Below are positions 450-54,185 of a DNA stretch of 64,000 nt, in pieces (positions within the stretch are counted from its first letter, which is position 1; the number at the start of each line of letters is the position of its first letter). The position numbers and the translations under genes are program-made. The stretch is from Thermoprotei archaeon. Its GTDB lineage: Archaea; Thermoproteota; Thermoprotei; Gearchaeales; WAQG01. Location: assembly GCA_038881895.1 (NCBI GenBank), contig JAVZOV010000004.1, forward strand, positions 34,521-98,520, in the 5' to 3' direction. The notes below the pieces were generated by a model. The model did no database searches and had not been told where the DNA came from. It saw only the letters and a program-made list of their open reading frames with translations.

Positions 450-605
450 TAAACATAACCCATAGAGCTCATTACCCTGGGATTATAAAGTTATGAGCTA
501 CGCAAATCAGCAGATGAGGGAATGAACATGAAGCTCATCCTAAACGCTGGAAACTCATGACTTCAGTCGCGGAGTAGCGCACTTAGTCACGTTTAGCTAA
601 TAGAA
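450..605. repeat. Short divergent copy (copy C) of the interspersed repeat family, sharing the conserved 3' core ...gaaGyyCATCCTAAACGCTGG...
   Basis: Sequence catagagctcatt...atgaagctcatcctaaacgctggaaactcatgacttcagtcgcggag aligns with the 3' half of the copies at 8761-9012 and 20053-20295. Confidence 0.4.
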
Positions 606-3965: not shown

Positions 3966-5123
3966 TCATGTAACTTTCACCTCAATTTTTTGCAGTATTT
4001 TTCTTAGTATGTCGATGGTGTTTCTTATATCATCGTATGTTATCATGTATGGTGGTAAAAATCTAACAGTAGTTACTCCAGCTTTAAGCGATAAGATCTT
4101 TTCCTCTTGAAGTGTCTTTATGATACTTGATGGGTTTGTACGCATATCGATTCCTATCATAAATCCAATTCCTCTAATATCACGCACAATATCAAAATCT
4201 TTTAAATTAACCTTAAGTAGATTAATAAAATCCTTTCCCTTCTCTCTAACATTATTAGTTACATTATCGCTTTTTAAAACTCTTACTGATGCAGTAACAG
4301 CAGCCATAGCAAGAGGATTTCCACCGTATGTACTGCCGTGATCACCTTCATCCAGCTTACTGGCAATCCAATCTGGCATGAATACTGCACTCACTGGAAA
4401 ACCTCCGCCAATGGCCTTACCAGCAGCCATTATATCTGGTTTTGTATTAAAATGTTGATGCGCCCATATTTTTCCAGTCCTTCCAAATCCACTCTGAATT
4501 TCATCTACTATAAGAATACTACCAGTATCATCAGCAATATCCCTCAAAGCTTTCATAAAATCTGGCTGTGCGGGTATAACGCCTCCTTCACCTTGGACTG
4601 GTTCGACTATTATTCCTGCAACAGTATCGTTCACAACCTTTAATGATTCAATATTATTGAATTCAGCAAATATAACATCACTCATAAGGGGTTCGAAAGG
4701 TTCTCTATACTTTTTATTCCATGTAAGGGATAAAGCTGCAAAAGTCCTGCCGTGAAAAGAATTTTTAAAAGCAACAAATTTCTTTCTTTTTGTGACCTTT
4801 TTAGCAATTTTCACTGCCAATTCTATAGCTTCACTACCACTATTTAAAAGAAAAACATTATTAAGGTCATCAGGTTTCACGTATTCAAGTTCATTTAACA
4901 TTTCATCACGTATTGATGATGAGAAAGCTGTAGACAAAGTCATTATTTCGTTCATTTGTCTACTTAAATATTCAATAACAACTTTATTCCTATGACCAAG
5001 AAAAGCCACACCATGCCCAGTATGTAAATCAAGATATTTGACACCATTTTCATCCCATACGTACTGATCCTTACCCTTAACAATTTTAAGTCCTCTATTA
5101 CCAAAAAAACTAATTAATTTCAA
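3966..5123 (-). CDS. lysJ: Class-III aminotransferase, LysJ/ArgD type
   Basis: PLP-dependent aminotransferase fold with a lysine-containing motif ([13 protein letters not shown]); last gene of the lysWXJ unit. Confidence 0.8.
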
Positions 5124-8482: not shown

Positions 8483-8760
8483 AAATACTAAAAATAACTC
8501 CAAAATAAAACATTTTTGTTACATTAAGAACAAAAAGAAAAAACAATAAAACAAATAAAACATTAAAAGCAAACATCACAAGTTTTACAAAAATGAATTA
8601 CACTACTAGCTTGTTATACTAAAGGAAGGAACTATAACCTCAAGTTGAATACCTCAATTATACTAACAATATTATCACGGAACTAAAGTTTAGTCTCTTG
8701 CTGAATTTCTGTAAAGGGGAAATAGGAAATAAAATTTTCTTAAAAATTTCATTTTTATAA

Positions 8761-9012
8761 TGATGAGTCCCAGAAAGCTTAGAGCTTTGCTGGGATGAAT
8801 GGGCAAAGTTTATGATGTTAACCCACTAATTTAAATGTTCCAGATGTGAATGGAAAGAATTTCGTCTGAATTGGAGCGAAAACATAGTCCATAGGATAAT
8901 AAGCTTTATGAGATAGTTGAGTTGTGAGACTCGCAAACCAGCAAATAAAGAAATGAGTGTGAAGTCCATCCTAAACGCTGGGAGTCCCTGCTTTAGCTGT
9001 GGAGAGGTTCGC
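8761..9012. repeat. Interspersed ~240-bp repeat, copy A (near-identical to copy B at 20053-20295)
   Basis: Shares a 5' palindrome (AAAGCTtagAGCTTT) followed by ctgggatgaatgggcaaag, and a 3' core gcaaaccagcaaataaagaaatgagtgtgaagtccatcctaaacgctgg, with copy B. Confidence 0.6.
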
Positions 9013-9310
9013 TACATTGACATTCTCCGTGGCTGAAGCCAGGAGATTCTCGGTTTGTCGTGGGGCCTCCACTCATCCTACCGAGTTCGGGCTGTGCCAA
9101 GGCAGCCCCTGCCATGAGCATATAGCCCATAGCCCGCTCGCTGGAACCCCCCCACCCGTCTTGGATGGGAGCCTTATTCCAGCTTTCGGACGTCCCATCC
9201 ACATCCGAGCGACACGCTCAAGGAGATGGTGGACTTGGATGAATATAAACTTAACGGCGATTCATCTCCACGACTGAAGTCGGAAGCCTTCTCGCCGAAA
9301 GAGTGGTAAC
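9013..9310 (-). pseudogene. tnpB: Decayed tnpB 3'-end remnant. The first ~125 bp is homologous to the 3' end and right end of the intact tnpB at 52797-52921; the rest is GC-rich with no intact ORF
   Basis: 9017-9137 aligns at high identity with 52801-52921, differing mainly in a ~22-nt central segment. The minus-strand frame encodes ...RAMGYMLMAGAALAQPELG, the same C-terminal peptide as the intact TnpB. No TnpB-like upstream reading frame. GC content is far above the flanks. Confidence 0.55.
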
Positions 9311-9347
9311 CTATTAATATTTAAGGTATTGATTTTAATTATAGAAT

Positions 9348-15425: not shown

Positions 15426-16712
15426 ATGGTAAAATTTATAAGCTACGAATCTTATAAAATTCTGGTGAATTTTATGAATAGAGCAATTTCTCGTTTGACT
15501 GGAATCTCCATTATTATAATAGTAATAATTGCAATAATAGCTGCACTATTTATTTTTACAATGGCTCCCACTCCTACTGCTGGTGGGACGATTAAAATTG
15601 GGTTTACTACATCAGTAACAGGCTCACTTTCTGTAGAAGGGACACGCCAGTTGCATGGCATACAACTATGGCAGGAATGGGTAAATAGCCATGGAGGAAT
15701 AAAAATAGGAAATAAAATCTATAATGTATCGTTATTGTACTATGATGATCAGAGTTCTAAGGATAATGTTGTTGCACTTTATGAAAGATTAATAACTGCT
15801 GATAAGGTTGATTTTCTAATTTCTCCATACTCAAGTGGATTAACTTTTACTGCAGCAGCTATAGCTGAGAAATATCATAAGGTTATGGTCGCTACTGGTG
15901 CTGCCAGTGATAGTATTTTCCAACAGGGTTATAAATATACAGTTCAGCTTTACACTCCAGGTTCGCTATACTTAAAATCTACAATAGATCTACTATTAGC
16001 AAAAGATCCTACTGCTAAAAATATTGCAATAATTTATGAAGATGAAATTTTCGCTGCTTCAGTAGCTGATGGTGCTAAAAAATATGCTGAAAGTAAAGGG
16101 CTTAATGTTGTGTATTATGACAAATACCCATCAAAACCAACGGATTTATCTTCACTGTTAACTGTTATAAAAAGCAAAAATCCTGATGCTATAATAGGAG
16201 GAGGGCATTTTGCTGATGGTGTTCTCTTAATAAAACAGGCTAAACAGTTGAATGTCAATGCGAAGCTCTTTTCAATAGTTGTAGCTGCGCCCGAAGATAA
16301 GTTTAGAGATGCGCTTGGTGCAGATGCAAACTATATTATGGGGCCATCTCAATGGGAACCAGATGTCAAATATACAGTAAATTATGGTCCTTCTGTTAGT
16401 GAGTTTATAAATATGTATGTAAAGAGATTTAATGAGACACCTACATACCATTCTGCAGGAGGATTTGCAGCTGCATTAGTGTTACAAGCTGCTATTGAAA
16501 AGGCACAAAGTCTCGATAGTGATAAGGTGCGTGAAGCATTTAACTCATTAGATCTAAAGATTTTCTTTGGAGCATTTAAGATAGATCCTGCAACAGGGCT
16601 TCAAATAGCTCATCAAATGGTGCTCATACAATGGCAAGGTGGAAAGAAATACACAGTATGGCCTACTGAAGCAGCCTCAAAGGAACCAATATATCCTAAA
16701 CCATCATGGTAA
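15426..16712 (+). CDS. Branched-chain amino acid ABC transporter substrate-binding protein (LivJ/LivK family)
   Basis: N-terminal signal/anchor and Thr-rich linker followed by a type-I periplasmic-binding fold; first gene of a five-gene liv-type operon. Confidence 0.75.
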   Translation: MVKFISYESYKILVNFMNRAISRLTGISIIIIVIIAIIAALFIFTMAPTPTAGGTIKIGFTTSVTGSLSVEGTRQLHGIQLWQEWVNSHGGIKIGNKIYNVSLLYYDDQSSKDNVVALYERLITADKVDFLISPYSSGLTFTAAAIAEKYHKVMVATGAASDSIFQQGYKYTVQLYTPGSLYLKSTIDLLLAKDPTAKNIAIIYEDEIFAASVADGAKKYAESKGLNVVYYDKYPSKPTDLSSLLTVIKSKNPDAIIGGGHFADGVLLIKQAKQLNVNAKLFSIVVAAPEDKFRDALGADANYIMGPSQWEPDVKYTVNYGPSVSEFINMYVKRFNETPTYHSAGGFAAALVLQAAIEKAQSLDSDKVREAFNSLDLKIFFGAFKIDPATGLQIAHQMVLIQWQGGKKYTVWPTEAASKEPIYPKPSW

Positions 16713-20017: not shown

Positions 20018-20052
20018 TCTATTTATTGGCTTCATATTTTTATATAGATGGG

Positions 20053-20295
20053 TGTCAAGAAAGCTTAAAGCTTTGCTGGGATGAATGAGCAAAAGTTTAG
20101 ACACGAAGCTAGCTCACTAAATTCTAGATGTTCCAGATGCAATGGAATAACATCTGAATTGGAGTGAAAACATAGCCCATAGGTTAACGAGATCTATGAG
20201 ATAGCGGAGCTGTGAGCACTGCAAACCAGCAAATAAAGAAATGAGTGTGAAGTCCATCCTAAACGCTGGAAGTCCTTGCTTTAGCTGTGGAGTGG
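20053..20295. repeat. Interspersed ~240-bp repeat, copy B
   Basis: Near-identical ends to copy A (8761-9012) with a more divergent middle; 5' perfect palindrome AAAGCTTaAAGCTTT. Confidence 0.6.
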
Positions 20296-20348
20296 CTCAC
20301 AATAGCTATCTTTATATTTTTAAAAAAAGAAGATCTATTGATGATAAT

Positions 20349-20768
20349 ATGCCGGTCGCATTAAAAGTTCGTGATATCATGGAAGGAGGAGTTGTAGTAC
20401 TTGATGGCAATTTACCTGCTATTGAAGCTTTAAAAGCCATGCTTGAAAATCAAGTATGGTCAGTGGTCATTTCTATTAATGATGTGCCATCTGGCGTGGT
20501 GACTGAGCGTGATTTGTTAAGAAGAGTTATTGCTAAAGGTTTTGACATTAATAGAATATTATTAAAGGAAATAATGACATCTCCTTTAATAACAATTAGT
20601 TCTGATGCAACATTAGCTGAAGCTTGGAAACTAATGACAGAAAAAAATATTAGACGTTTATATGTTGTTGAAAAAGGTAAAATCATAGGCAGAGTAACGC
20701 AAACTGGATTATTTAATAAATTATTAGAGGTTATGATTGCAATAAGCTCTATAAAATACTTAATGTAA
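20349..20768 (+). CDS. CBS-domain pair protein
   Basis: Two CBS motifs. The listed ORF start (20241) runs through the repeat and is probably an artefact; ATG at 20349 (MPVALKVRDIMEGG) preferred. Confidence 0.65.
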   Translation: MPVALKVRDIMEGGVVVLDGNLPAIEALKAMLENQVWSVVISINDVPSGVVTERDLLRRVIAKGFDINRILLKEIMTSPLITISSDATLAEAWKLMTEKNIRRLYVVEKGKIIGRVTQTGLFNKLLEVMIAISSIKYLM

Positions 20769-30691: not shown

Positions 30692-30783
30692 TGGGGCCGG
30701 CCGGATTTGAACCGGCGATCCCCAGGGCCCGAGCCTGGTACTCTAGGTTTTTAGCTTCCTAGACCAAGCTAGACTACGGCCCC
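30692..30783 (-). tRNA. tRNA-Pro (anticodon CGG) with a ~16-nt insertion (probable non-canonical intron) in the D-arm; no encoded CCA
   Basis: Reverse complement folds as acceptor GGGGCCG/CGGCCCC, intact anticodon stem-loop CCAGG-CUCGGGC-CCUGG, T-arm GCCGG-UUCAAAU-CCGGC; the D-arm region is 38 nt instead of ~19. Confidence 0.6.
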
Positions 30784-50740: not shown

Positions 50741-50800
50741 TTTTACCAGAACTCCGACAAGAGAGTTCAGAACTTTAGTTCTGGGATGAATTGCCGAAAG
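50741..50800. repeat. Partial, divergent copy (copy D) of the 5' module of the interspersed repeat: palindrome CAGAACTttAGTTCTG + gggatgaattgccgaaaggtttgatg
   Basis: Same architecture as the 5' ends of copies A and B (palindrome followed by ctgggatgaatgNgcNaaRgtttRtgatg), but the palindrome arms have a different sequence. Confidence 0.4.
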
Positions 50801-52796: not shown

Positions 52797-52960
52797 AATT
52801 GACATTCTCCGCGGCTGAAGCCGGGAGATTCTCGGTTCCTCAGGCTCAAGCCTTCATCGTACCGAGTTCGGGCTGTGTCAAGGCAGCCCCTGCCATGAGC
52901 ATGTAGCCCATAGCCCGCTTAAGGATGTTCGTTGCTCCATTATAGTCTGCGTTGCATTGG
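52797..52960 (-). ncRNA. Predicted omega-RNA (reRNA) scaffold overlapping the tnpB 3' end and right end
   Basis: Inference from the TnpB family's known architecture; the same ~125-bp segment is what survives in the remnant at 9013-9137. Extent not determinable from sequence alone. Confidence 0.35.
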
Positions 52961-53922
52961 ATTCCGCAGTTTTGGCATTTGAAGAGGCCTCCGACTCGAA
53001 GCCCCCTATGCCCGCATTTATGGCACAGCTTTGAAGTGTTTCTCTCGCTTATCTTAACAACTTTGATTCCGCGCCATCTCGCCTTATACTCTATGAATTG
53101 GCTTAGCCTATGGTATGGGAATCCGTTGTTGAGCTTTCTTTTGAAAGTCCTACCTCTGCCGTTTCGTCTTATGCCCTTGAGTTTTCCAAGAATTATCATG
53201 GAGTCGTTCGCCAAAGCTTCGTTGACTATGGCTCTGCTAATCTTATGCAGGATGTCGCTAACAACTCTTCTCTCTTTACGCCCAATCTTCTTTATGGTTC
53301 TGTAGGCCCTCTTTAAAGCTAAAGACCTTCTAAGGTAGAAGTAGTGCCCCTTAACCCTTCTAAGCTCCCTCCCATAGAACTTCGGTCTCGGATTGGTTGA
53401 GTTGACTGTTGTGGCTATCCAGCGTATCCCCATATCTATAGCTAAAGTCGACTTAGGATTTCTCTCCTCGACTTCTTTTTCAACAGTTATGTGGACGAAC
53501 CACTCATTACCTTTCTTTACGATTTTTGCCTCTCTGCAAATCATGTCATCAGTTATTGGTTCATGGGTCTTTATAGGGACGTTTATTCCGCCTCTAACCC
53601 CATAAATTGGAATCTTGAGCCAATAAGGCGTCAGCTTGGTGTCCGCTCTGTACATGTCCCTTCTAAGGATTAGCGGGTATTCCTTGTTAGGCTTAACATT
53701 TCCAAGCCTCTTTAGAAGTCTGTCAGCCTGTTGCTTTGTAGCGGAATAAAGTGGAACAGACTTGTCTCCATGCAAATAGCGTTGCCAATTCTCGTATTCC
53801 CTTCTAAGAAGCTCTTCCTTGCCTTTGCGAAGTTCAAGAACCTTTGCCTTAATGGTTTTCTTAGCCTTCATGAGCGACTCGCCCATAGAAAAATTAACTG
53901 ACAAGTATTTAAACGCATTCAT
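52846..53922 (-). CDS. tnpB: TnpB (IS200/IS605 OrfB; RuvC-like RNA-guided nuclease family)
   Basis: RuvC-I LAIDMGIRW, RuvC-II Glu region, zinc finger CHKCGHRG...CQNCGIQC, RuvC-III NADYNGATNI; GC content clearly above flanking genes. An internal Met (MKAKK...) may be the true start. Confidence 0.85.
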   Translation of the reverse strand: MNAFKYLSVNFSMGESLMKAKKTIKAKVLELRKGKEELLRREYENWQRYLHGDKSVPLYSATKQQADRLLKRLGNVKPNKEYPLILRRDMYRADTKLTPYWLKIPIYGVRGGINVPIKTHEPITDDMICREAKIVKKGNEWFVHITVEKEVEERNPKSTLAIDMGIRWIATTVNSTNPRPKFYGRELRRVKGHYFYLRRSLALKRAYRTIKKIGRKERRVVSDILHKISRAIVNEALANDSMIILGKLKGIRRNGRGRTFKRKLNNGFPYHRLSQFIEYKARWRGIKVVKISERNTSKLCHKCGHRGLRVGGLFKCQNCGIQCNADYNGATNILKRAMGYMLMAGAALTQPELGTMKA

Positions 53923-54185
53923 CCCATGATTAAAATCATGGGCTTTCTGCTACGTCTCTGTAAAATTACGTAAGAGAGCGTCCCTTTACGAAGGGTTTAA
54001 CGCAGAAGAGAGAGATTAAGTATAGATATGGAATCCATACTTAGTCCAGAACCATTAATAGGTTTTAAGACATCTCATTTAAAATCTCGTCCATTCATTC
54101 CAGGACTAAAGTTCTAAGTTTTTTGGACGTCCAATAGTATAAATAAATTTTTATTAAAGAAAAGAAACATAAAAATGTGGTACTT

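Follow-up and report, generated by a model that had tools for sequence, protein, structure and literature searches.

The closest described counterparts of the repeats reported here are the PATEs of Haloquadratum walsbyi (e.g., HqIRS71), which lack terminal inverted repeats (TIRs) and target duplications, carry near-terminal palindromes, are too short to encode a transposase, arose from IS605/IS1341-type elements through loss of the core, and are polymorphic among strains (PMC3119063). In that organism they reach hundreds of copies, some of them more than 90% identical (PMC3119063). Similar elements of ~270 nt, composed of a left end (LE), a tnpB tail, and a right end (RE), occur in Halanaerobium (PMC7290912) and likewise in Geobacillus (PMC10055086). 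A further comparison is provided by ISGst2 and the PATE-like elements of the bacterium Geobacillus stearothermophilus (Meers et al., PMC10055086), for which TnpA excision and TnpB cleavage have been demonstrated. These elements use TTTAT as transposon-adjacent motif (TAM) and TTCAC as transposon-encoded motif (TEM), carry a DNA-guide box on the 5' side of each hairpin (LE and RE), and encode their omega-RNA in the tnpB 3' end plus RE, with the PATEs keeping the omega-RNA for use in trans. In Archaea, the solo-tnpB IS200/IS605 elements of Sulfolobus islandicus REY15A (SisTnpB, PMC10640517) also have the TAM TTTAT, and their conserved RE hairpins constitute the omega-RNA scaffold, followed by a variable guide. 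SMN1 of S. islandicus is described in a later source as a 320-bp, ORF-less, non-autonomous element that is mobilized in trans by ISC1733, demonstrably active, and conserved among strains (Berkner & Lipps 2007, via PMC3718332).

Here, we analyze a window of 64 kb (the whole stretch of archaeal DNA under study; G+C content, 35%), in which an initial annotation had noted four copies, A to D, of an interspersed repeat. We consider it highly probable (about 0.9) that A and B are PATEs, that is, non-autonomous, internally deleted derivatives, of TnpB-only IS200/IS605 elements (IS1341 group), and that C and D are, respectively, an RE-side and an LE-side fragment of related elements. The features of A and B agree with the published definition of PATEs (PMC3119063), although they differ from the H. 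walsbyi examples in lacking sequence similarity to them, in their non-haloarchaeal host, and in being visible as two full, decayed copies. Their family has the same TAM (TTTAT) and TEM ((T/C)TCAC; CTCAC in A) as ISGst2 (PMC10055086) and the same arrangement of guide boxes and omega-RNA; unlike the Geobacillus elements, whose activity has been demonstrated, A and B are known from sequence, and their predicted omega-RNA fold has decayed. Compared by description only, the S. islandicus solo-tnpB elements differ in being full-length and TnpB-encoding, since A, B, and C have no tnpB, and SMN1, as far as the citing source portrays it, differs in its activity and conservation. Classical MITEs are set apart from A and B by their TIRs and target-site duplication.

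Elements A (20044–20300, forward strand, 257 nt) and B (8759–9012, forward strand, 254 nt) form a genuine repeat, with 82.5% identity over 269 nt (blastn, E = 2.5e-69). Globally aligned, they are collinear from end to end (217 matches in 263 columns), and they are the two full copies in the window, 17.5% diverged from one another. Both show the same order of parts: TTTAT, an LE with a structure of ~45 nt, a mutated TATA-like box, ~25 nt, a deletion junction, the tail of tnpB, and an RE ending in (C/T)TC(A/G)C. The junction is common to A and B and marks the loss of ~1.1 kb of tnpB, of which the last ~180 nt, from the second CxxC of the zinc finger, survive as a relic. TTTAT abuts the 5' end of A (20039–20043, forward strand), in the position that TTAC or TTTAT occupies before every LE examined in metagenomic tnpB loci, and it precedes B (8754–8758, forward strand) in the same register as in A and in locus L031; both TAMs are read from the sequence. 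No TIRs are found in A or B (at best, 9–10 nt match locally when the first 40 nt are compared with the reverse complement of the last 40 nt), and neither copy is flanked by a target-site duplication (TTTAT/AATAG for A, TTTAT/TACAT for B). The flanks of the two copies differ except for a short AT-rich stretch 5' of TTTAT. Upstream of A and B, TTTTTATA had been considered as a TATA box of their own; we replaced this interpretation with that of the TAM TTTAT, and the two are compatible in an AT-rich archaeal promoter.

The remaining copies are partial. Copy C (453–582, forward strand) is genuine but 5'-truncated, a 130-nt RE-side remnant that consists of the omega-RNA/RE module only, with the RE motif at 561–574 and the LE absent; its blastn matches reach 73–77% over 62–89 nt (E = 1e-8). 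Copy D (50742–50796, forward strand) comprises a TTTAC TAM (50742–50746) and an LE-only remnant, whose canonical LE structure at 50755–50796 scores 52.1 bits under a covariance model (R1) that had D in its training set. D gives no blastn match to the other copies, with which it has only the ~42-nt 5' structure in common. It departs from other elements after ~80 nt and represents another lineage, nearest to an LE-like module at 54088–54129. The four-copy family proposed earlier is thus sound for A and B, sound for C as a truncated copy, and confined to the 5' structure for D. The accompanying statement that the copies are intergenic and devoid of a credible ORF is borne out, with all reading frames of A and B interrupted. 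Two short motifs are strongly overrepresented in the window: TGGRATGAATK, with 5 matches (0.28 expected), and CTTYAGYYRYGGAG, with 6 (0.34 expected).

Beyond the window, the 22-mer conserved in A, B, and C (TGAAGNNCATCCTAAACGCTGG), searched as an exact pattern, has no match in 185,579 species genomes, JGI metagenomes, or IMG/VR, and A has none by blastn in plasmid and phage collections. As direct nucleotide searches gave none, TnpB proteins provided the only route to homologues beyond the window. ISC1733, the element that mobilizes SMN1, belongs to the IS200/IS605 family. A close kinship of A and B with SMN1 is disfavored, since the conserved 22-mer is unmatched in species-representative genomes.

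The 5' palindrome and its adjoining ctgggatgaatg box are the LE structure of TnpB-only IS200/IS605 elements. This structure consists of the TAM (TTTAT or TTAC), ~8 nt, one arm of an outer stem, AGAAAG, a hairpin, GGGATGAAT, the second arm of the outer stem, and a TTTAAATA-like box. The module is present in A, B, and D, in three further places in the window described below (element E, up1, and a resident IS), and in about 20–25 hot-spring metagenomic tnpB loci, where it lies ~40 nt before the TnpB match. An alignment of 22 elements shows an inner 9-bp hairpin and an outer 5-bp stem that enclose the conserved AGAAAG and (G)GGATGAAT boxes. Pairing is realized in 90% of cells (65% in shuffles and at most 49% in slid registers), and covariation reaches 0.70 (0.25 in shuffles and at most 0.22 in slid registers); in 12 of 14 pairs, both partners have changed. 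The frequency of T.G pairs assigns the fold to the top (tnpB-sense) strand. The guide-box base next to the hairpin tracks the last base of the TAM, being G with TTAC (~15 elements) and A with TTTAT (6 elements), a covariation that has also been described between TAM and DNA guide in ISGst elements. A and B are exceptions, since they combine G with TTTAT, giving a G.T pair in place of A-T or G-C.

Covariation had been claimed for the 5' palindrome before, and for the canonical hairpin and the outer stem it is real. The arms cited in its support were mis-registered: the 5' arm given for B (AAAGCTT/AAGCTTT) is mostly the conserved AGAAAG box, while the arms given for D (CAGAACT/AGTTCTG) are those of the canonical hairpin. 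The suggestion of an ssDNA hairpin as at IS200/IS605 ends has proved correct, the 5' module corresponding to the left end and the 3' module to the tnpB 3' end and right end. The LE of A (20053–20091, forward strand) retains the outer stem, the AGAAAG guide box, a hairpin, and the GGGATGAAT box; that of B lies at 8767–8805 (forward strand). Both resemble the LE of L031 most closely (82% identity for A, 87% for B), relative to which both are missing 3 nt of the canonical 3' arm, shifting the hairpin register. The canonical hairpin is degenerate in both copies (model R1: 39.5 bits with 5 non-standard inner pairs in A; 44.9 bits with 4 in B), and an alternative long hairpin sequesters the AGAAAG box in B. 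The TATA-like box that follows the LE is likewise mutated, reading TTTAGACA / TTTATGAT in the two copies against TTTAAATA.

The 3' 131 nt of A and B (20170–20300 and 8882–9012, respectively, both forward strand) are a tnpB 3' end that doubles as omega-RNA scaffold and RE (GGAAG, hairpin, ..CTCAC). A profile built from the DNA of eight distinct intact members of a second tnpB subfamily recovers this module in A (nhmmer, E = 5e-53), in B (E = 3.6e-52), and, at 443–587, in C (E = 1e-18). Measured from the ACATAGCCC (NIAH) codons, the RE boundary lies at exactly 131 nt in each of the eight intact elements and in A and B, which end at the same boundary, and at 130 nt in C. The homology of A, B, and C to intact REs includes GGAAG ... 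(C/T)TCAC. Relic codons of A read ENIAHRLTRSM..KPANKEMSVKSILNAGS..GVAH, and the middle of A (20168–20234) is 84% identical (E = 3e-14) to positions 4416–4350 of locus L036, which form the 3' terminus of a distinct, second tnpB (...FKCPKCGMEYDRDLNACINIAHRVTSSMGWGSCGPPKPADEVGGAKPQLNAGSFALKGGVAH). Translated in shifting frames, A yields RCSRCNGITSELE, ENIAHRLTRSMR, and RSCEHCKPANKEMSVKSILNAGSPCFSCGVAH, with 58% identity over 53 amino acids to TnpB C-termini. A candidate tnpB relic on the minus strand (PMGYVF, compared with AMGYML) was dropped in favor of these plus-strand frames, which match over the 53 amino acids. The subfamily matched by the relic has 593 members at E < 1e-20, named IS605 OrfB or RNA-guided endonuclease InsQ/TnpB in their sources, and its hosts include Methanodesulfokora, Methanomethylicia, Bathyarchaeales, Asgard, and Thermoproteota MAGs. 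Its intact members have a four-helix consensus in the module, with compensatory changes in 15 of 36 pairs despite the overlap with coding sequence. The LE of A and B is subfamily-1-like (AGAAAG..GGGATGAAT) and their 3' module subfamily-2-like; the parent is therefore inferred only. Among the sequences searched, we found no full-length parent with A-type ends.

The window also holds a resident full-length TnpB-only IS (52799–53959, minus strand). This element, and element E beside B, had gone unnoticed in the initial annotation. A 358-codon ORF (52846–53922, minus strand) encodes TnpB, with Pfam matches to Cas12f1-like_TNB (PF07282, 1.1e-23) and OrfB_IS605 (PF01385, 6.4e-9), and is flanked by one match of each of the two short motifs. 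The true start of tnpB is probably the ATG at 53871, giving a coding sequence of 52846–53871. Directly upstream of it lies TTTAC / agagacgtagc AGAAAG CCCATGATTttaATCATGGG ATGAAT gcgt TTTAAATA, the module also seen in A, B, and D, with the TTTAC TAM at 53960–53964 and the LE at 53912–53953 (51.4 bits under R1). The omega-RNA/RE (52799–52929) ends in GTCAA, and the 3' end of the element reads GAAT CTCCCGGCttcaGCCGCGGAG AATGTCAA / T. This IS belongs to the other subfamily, and its RNA is predicted to adopt the same four-hairpin layout. With its TnpB as query, 80 related metagenomic loci were recovered, 55 of them at 74–85% amino acid identity, and in 24 of 26 motif matches among metagenomic loci the RE motif follows the TnpB match by 50–90 nt on the coding strand. 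No relatives of this TnpB were found in IMG/VR, and no tnpA (Y1_Tnp) was found among the 20 ORFs scanned within the 64-kb window.

Element E (9017–9305, minus strand, 289 nt) is a complete PATE of the resident IS's subfamily and is better preserved than A and B. It has a TTAC TAM (9306–9309), a perfect LE at 9255–9297 that scores 41.8 bits (E = 3e-9) under R1 although E was outside the training set, a TnpB C-terminus surviving as a relic (RAMGYMLMAGAALAQPELG), and an RE with GTCAA at its end. Its GC-rich part beside B (9015–9137) is 87% identical to the 3' end of the resident IS over 123 nt and still translates as RAMGYMLMAGAALAQPELG. An RE-type motif within E (9266–9279, minus strand) had been a candidate for a second RE remnant; it was dropped, as the LE covariance model shows it to be the hairpin of E's left end. 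B and E stand tail to tail, with their REs facing each other 4 nt apart, and the original site, TTTAT-TACA-GTAA, offered one target per strand. A further LE-like structure, up1 (54088–54129, minus strand; 50 bits), lies just upstream of the resident IS and is preceded by TTTAT at 54139–54143. It represents either a remnant reduced to its LE or a very small PATE, the 3' end of which provides the resident IS with its target. Searches with the RE motif nearby and downstream found no RE for D or for up1.

Near-identical hairpins at the two ends are a canonical trait of IS200/IS605 elements. LE and RE hairpins are nearly identical in sequence in loci L095, L108, and L100, and those of E are also of one type, whereas in the resident IS they differ from each other. 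IS608, the paradigm of the IS200/IS605 mechanism, carries tnpA plus tnpB and, as in the resident IS and E, has subterminal hairpins on one strand. In both the resident IS and E, TTAC goes with AAAG at the LE and TCAA with GAAT at the RE, the target/cleavage and guide tetranucleotides of IS608 of Helicobacter pylori. Neither the outer covarying stem nor the invariant ATGAAT box of the archaeal LE is known from IS608. There is a remote chance that the LE fold, whose outer stem holds the AGAAAG and GGGATGAAT boxes clamped about the hairpin, is an undescribed recognition architecture for IS200/IS605 ends.

We find that the sites of A, B, and E are polymorphic between relatives. The genome nearest to the window by its HdrD-like neighbor (85% amino acid identity) is a Thermoprotei MAG (L002), from which A is absent. 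The distance there from the ABC ATPase stop to the ATG of the CBS-domain gene is 39 nt, and the window has 292 nt more, which represent A; the exact insertion boundaries are blurred by similar AT-rich, promoter-like sequence in both flanks. B and E are both absent from the ArgC-PfkB spacer of two contigs (L110 and L111; ArgC 91% identical, 86% nucleotide identity over 6 kb), which measures 104 nt there and 722 nt in the window; these contigs keep the TTAC after which E is inserted. The 3'-module RE profile has no match on the relatives' contigs used in this syntenic comparison. A more distant relative (L112) carries an RE-only remnant of the other subfamily. The presence/absence polymorphism that the initial annotation had proposed to look for is thus seen at both full copies. 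The PATE-type assignment of A and B follows from their common internal deletion, the TTTAT target, the absence of TIRs and of target duplication, and their absence from the same sites in relatives.

By their predicted folds, the elements fall into well-formed and decayed ones. As DNA, the LEs of intact elements adopt the canonical fold with two stems (-8.5 to -10 kcal/mol), whereas the LE of A forms only a shifted AAAGCT/AGCTTT hairpin (-3.8 kcal/mol, z -0.3) and that of B, also shifted in register, reaches -10 kcal/mol. For the RE hairpins, the values are -5.5 to -8.1 kcal/mol in intact elements but -1.1 to -2.4 in A, B, and C (z > 0, i.e., worse than most shuffles). The RNA fold of the module gives z-scores of -0.27 for A, -0.17 for B, and -1.4 for C against -4.2 for L093, -4.3 for the resident IS, and -2.3 for E, whose RNA is predicted to fold at -55.3 kcal/mol with the four-helix architecture. 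Consensus pairs are kept at 29 of 36 in A, 25 of 36 in B, and 26 of 36 in C, compared with 33–36 in intact elements. A and B also have 13 common changes at positions conserved in intact IS, and their G+C content (0.41–0.42) has drifted toward the host's 0.35, while that of E is 0.57. At high growth temperatures, the host would require stems of greater rather than lower stability. Weak folds predicted at 37°C are compatible with protein-stabilized structures. Because their hairpins are unstable, their omega-RNA folds like shuffled sequence, and pairs have been lost, A, B, and C are, on these predictions, probably old, inert fossils. E and the resident IS have remained well formed.

A and B might instead be active PATEs, mobilizable by a TnpA from elsewhere in the genome and bearing an orphan omega-RNA with which TnpB acting in trans re-cuts TTTAT plus the 3' flank, so that the element is retained. 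PATEs that encode omega-RNAs acted on in trans have been described (PMC10055086), both copies have a TAM, LE, RE, and the whole 131-nt module with exact spacing, their sites are polymorphic relative to those of relatives, and A keeps 9 of 10 pairs in helix 1, 6 of 6 in helix 2, and 10 of 12 in helix 3. We nonetheless regard present activity as unlikely: the RE hairpins are essentially unfoldable as DNA, the canonical LE hairpin is broken, and the RNA fold is no better than that of shuffles. In addition, the copies are 17.5% diverged with common changes at conserved positions, the sole TnpB of the window comes from the other subfamily, whose omega-RNA differs, and the TATA-like box after the LE is mutated. 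A variant of this idea starts from the observation that A, which keeps three of four omega-RNA helices, lies directly over the promoter of the gene at 20351, which encodes a CBS-domain protein. That A is an expressed orphan guide RNA, used by a TnpB in trans or by a nuclease-dead TnpB-like protein to protect the mini-element or regulate the CBS-domain gene, would be a long shot.

It is quite unlikely that A and B are two full-length IS decayed in place or one locus duplicated by recombination. Core deletions are frequent in IS605-type elements (PMC3119063), and remnants of decay are found in the same window (C with RE only, D with LE only). Independent deletions would not, however, produce the identical junction and full-length collinearity of A and B, and a duplicated locus would carry flanking DNA, yet the flanks differ and each copy starts right after TTTAT. 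Given the common junction, the collinearity, and the differing flanks, we favor copies of one mini-element that has moved at least once over two separate wrecks. We give almost no credence to independent structured small-RNA genes (a riboregulator or a C/D-box-like RNA) or a protein operator unrelated to transposons, an interpretation suggested by the intergenic position, the TATA-like sequence upstream, and the conserved box in the 5' module. It is largely refuted: that box is the LE of genuine tnpB elements, the interior shows homology to the coding sequence of tnpB and retains recognizable relic codons, the structure has not been maintained, and the repeats are absent from orthologous sites in relatives. 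Rfam likewise assigns no family to A or B, as its only match in the window at the gathering score is one tRNA elsewhere, and at E ≤ 10 A and B give chance-level matches only. The description of the repeats as an undescribed kind of element gives way to a known class, that of PATE-type deletion derivatives (PMC3119063, PMC10055086, PMC7290912). They do match a known MITE-like family at the level of kind but not at that of sequence, with no copy in the other collections searched. In sequence, A and B form a new family; in kind, they belong with the well-known PATEs or IS200/IS605 deletion derivatives.

If A and B are PATEs, their history can be modeled on the described systems. A Y1 transposase (TnpA), supplied in trans, would have engaged the hairpins of LE and RE on the top strand in its single-stranded form, with AGAAAG and GGAAG serving as the "DNA guides" that locate the TAM and the boundary of the RE (TEM). 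The element of ~255 nt would then have been excised as an ssDNA circle and inserted 3' of another TTTAT, leaving the target unduplicated. By analogy, the retained omega-RNA segment could have let TnpB made elsewhere re-cut the emptied donor sites.

Our analysis explains four or more unannotated intergenic repeats of this genome as IS200/IS605 debris; its main value lies in annotation. The repeat is a fossil of mobile DNA of an ordinary sort rather than a novel RNA or regulatory system, and recognizing this guards against mistaking such repeats for small-RNA genes or operators. For two TnpB subfamilies with a wide distribution among hot-spring Archaea, we also describe the LE and the 131-nt omega-RNA/RE module in compact form and with support from covariation, a description that could help to set the boundaries, TAMs, and guides of thermophilic TnpB systems for genome editing. 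Set against the well-folded E and resident IS, the decayed A, B, and C illustrate the quick erosion of orphan omega-RNA modules without a cognate protein.

The window carries a full-length TnpB-only IS200/IS605 element of the IS1341 group (52799-53959, minus strand), bounded by the target motif (TAM) TTTAC and the terminal motif (TEM) GTCAA. The omega-RNA module of this resident element, which comprises the 3' end of tnpB and the right end (RE), folds into four hairpins (RNA fold z -4.3 against shuffled sequence). The hairpin of its left end (LE), CCCATGATT/AATCATGGG, differs from its own RE hairpin.

The same subfamily is the origin of a second, well-preserved mini-element, PATE E (palindrome-associated transposable element; 289 nt, 9017-9305, minus strand), inserted after TTAC. 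Only 4 nt separate its right end from that of the decayed copy B. Unlike the resident element, E has hairpins of one type at its LE and RE, as do the elements at the related metagenomic loci L095 and L108. The omega-RNA module of E has retained its folding (z -2.3).

An additional LE-like structure (54088-54143, minus strand) follows a TTTAT and is located 179 nt upstream of the resident element, whose TTTAC target it holds at its 3' end. This structure is the remnant of an LE alone or else a tiny PATE, for which the hairpin CCCTTcgtaAAGGG at approximately 53983-53996 is a candidate right end.

In both the window and loci L014-L108, a TTTAAATA-like box is conserved 8-10 nt 3' of the LE structure and ~40 nt upstream of the tnpB ATG, while a short palindrome, GGGCGAGTCGCCC, directly precedes that ATG. 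They probably represent the promoter of tnpB together with a hairpin in its leader. In the decayed copies A and B and in the LE-only remnant D, the box carries mutations.

Similar AT-rich, promoter-like sequences flank the insertion on both sides at 20018-20043 versus 20301-20330, and likewise at a second site (8735-8758 versus 9310-9340), as exemplified by cttcatatttttat versus ctttatattttta. Target duplication is not expected of IS200/IS605 elements. The similarity may reflect chance within AT-rich promoters, a preference for TATA-like TTTAT targets, or local duplication.

In a more distant relative (L112, 76% nucleotide identity), an isolated RE remnant, GAAT CCTCCTGACtttaGCTGTGGAG AGCGTCAA (16095-16140, minus strand), borders a 3.6-kb stretch inserted, by comparison with the window, between positions 2385 and 2419 of the latter.

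Separately, window positions 30699-30758 (minus strand) matched the Rfam tRNA model barely over threshold (31 bits, model positions 7-64), and ARAGORN called no tRNA there. This may be an archaeal tRNA gene that contains an intron or is atypical in another way.

Among loci L093-L109 and L036, the reading frame of the other TnpB subfamily (subfamily 2) spans the entire omega-RNA module, with the tail ...KPxLNAGS..GGVAH. It extends beyond the RE boundary in some elements, and the position of its stop codon varies. Thus, conservation of this tail may be driven by RNA or DNA structure rather than by the protein.
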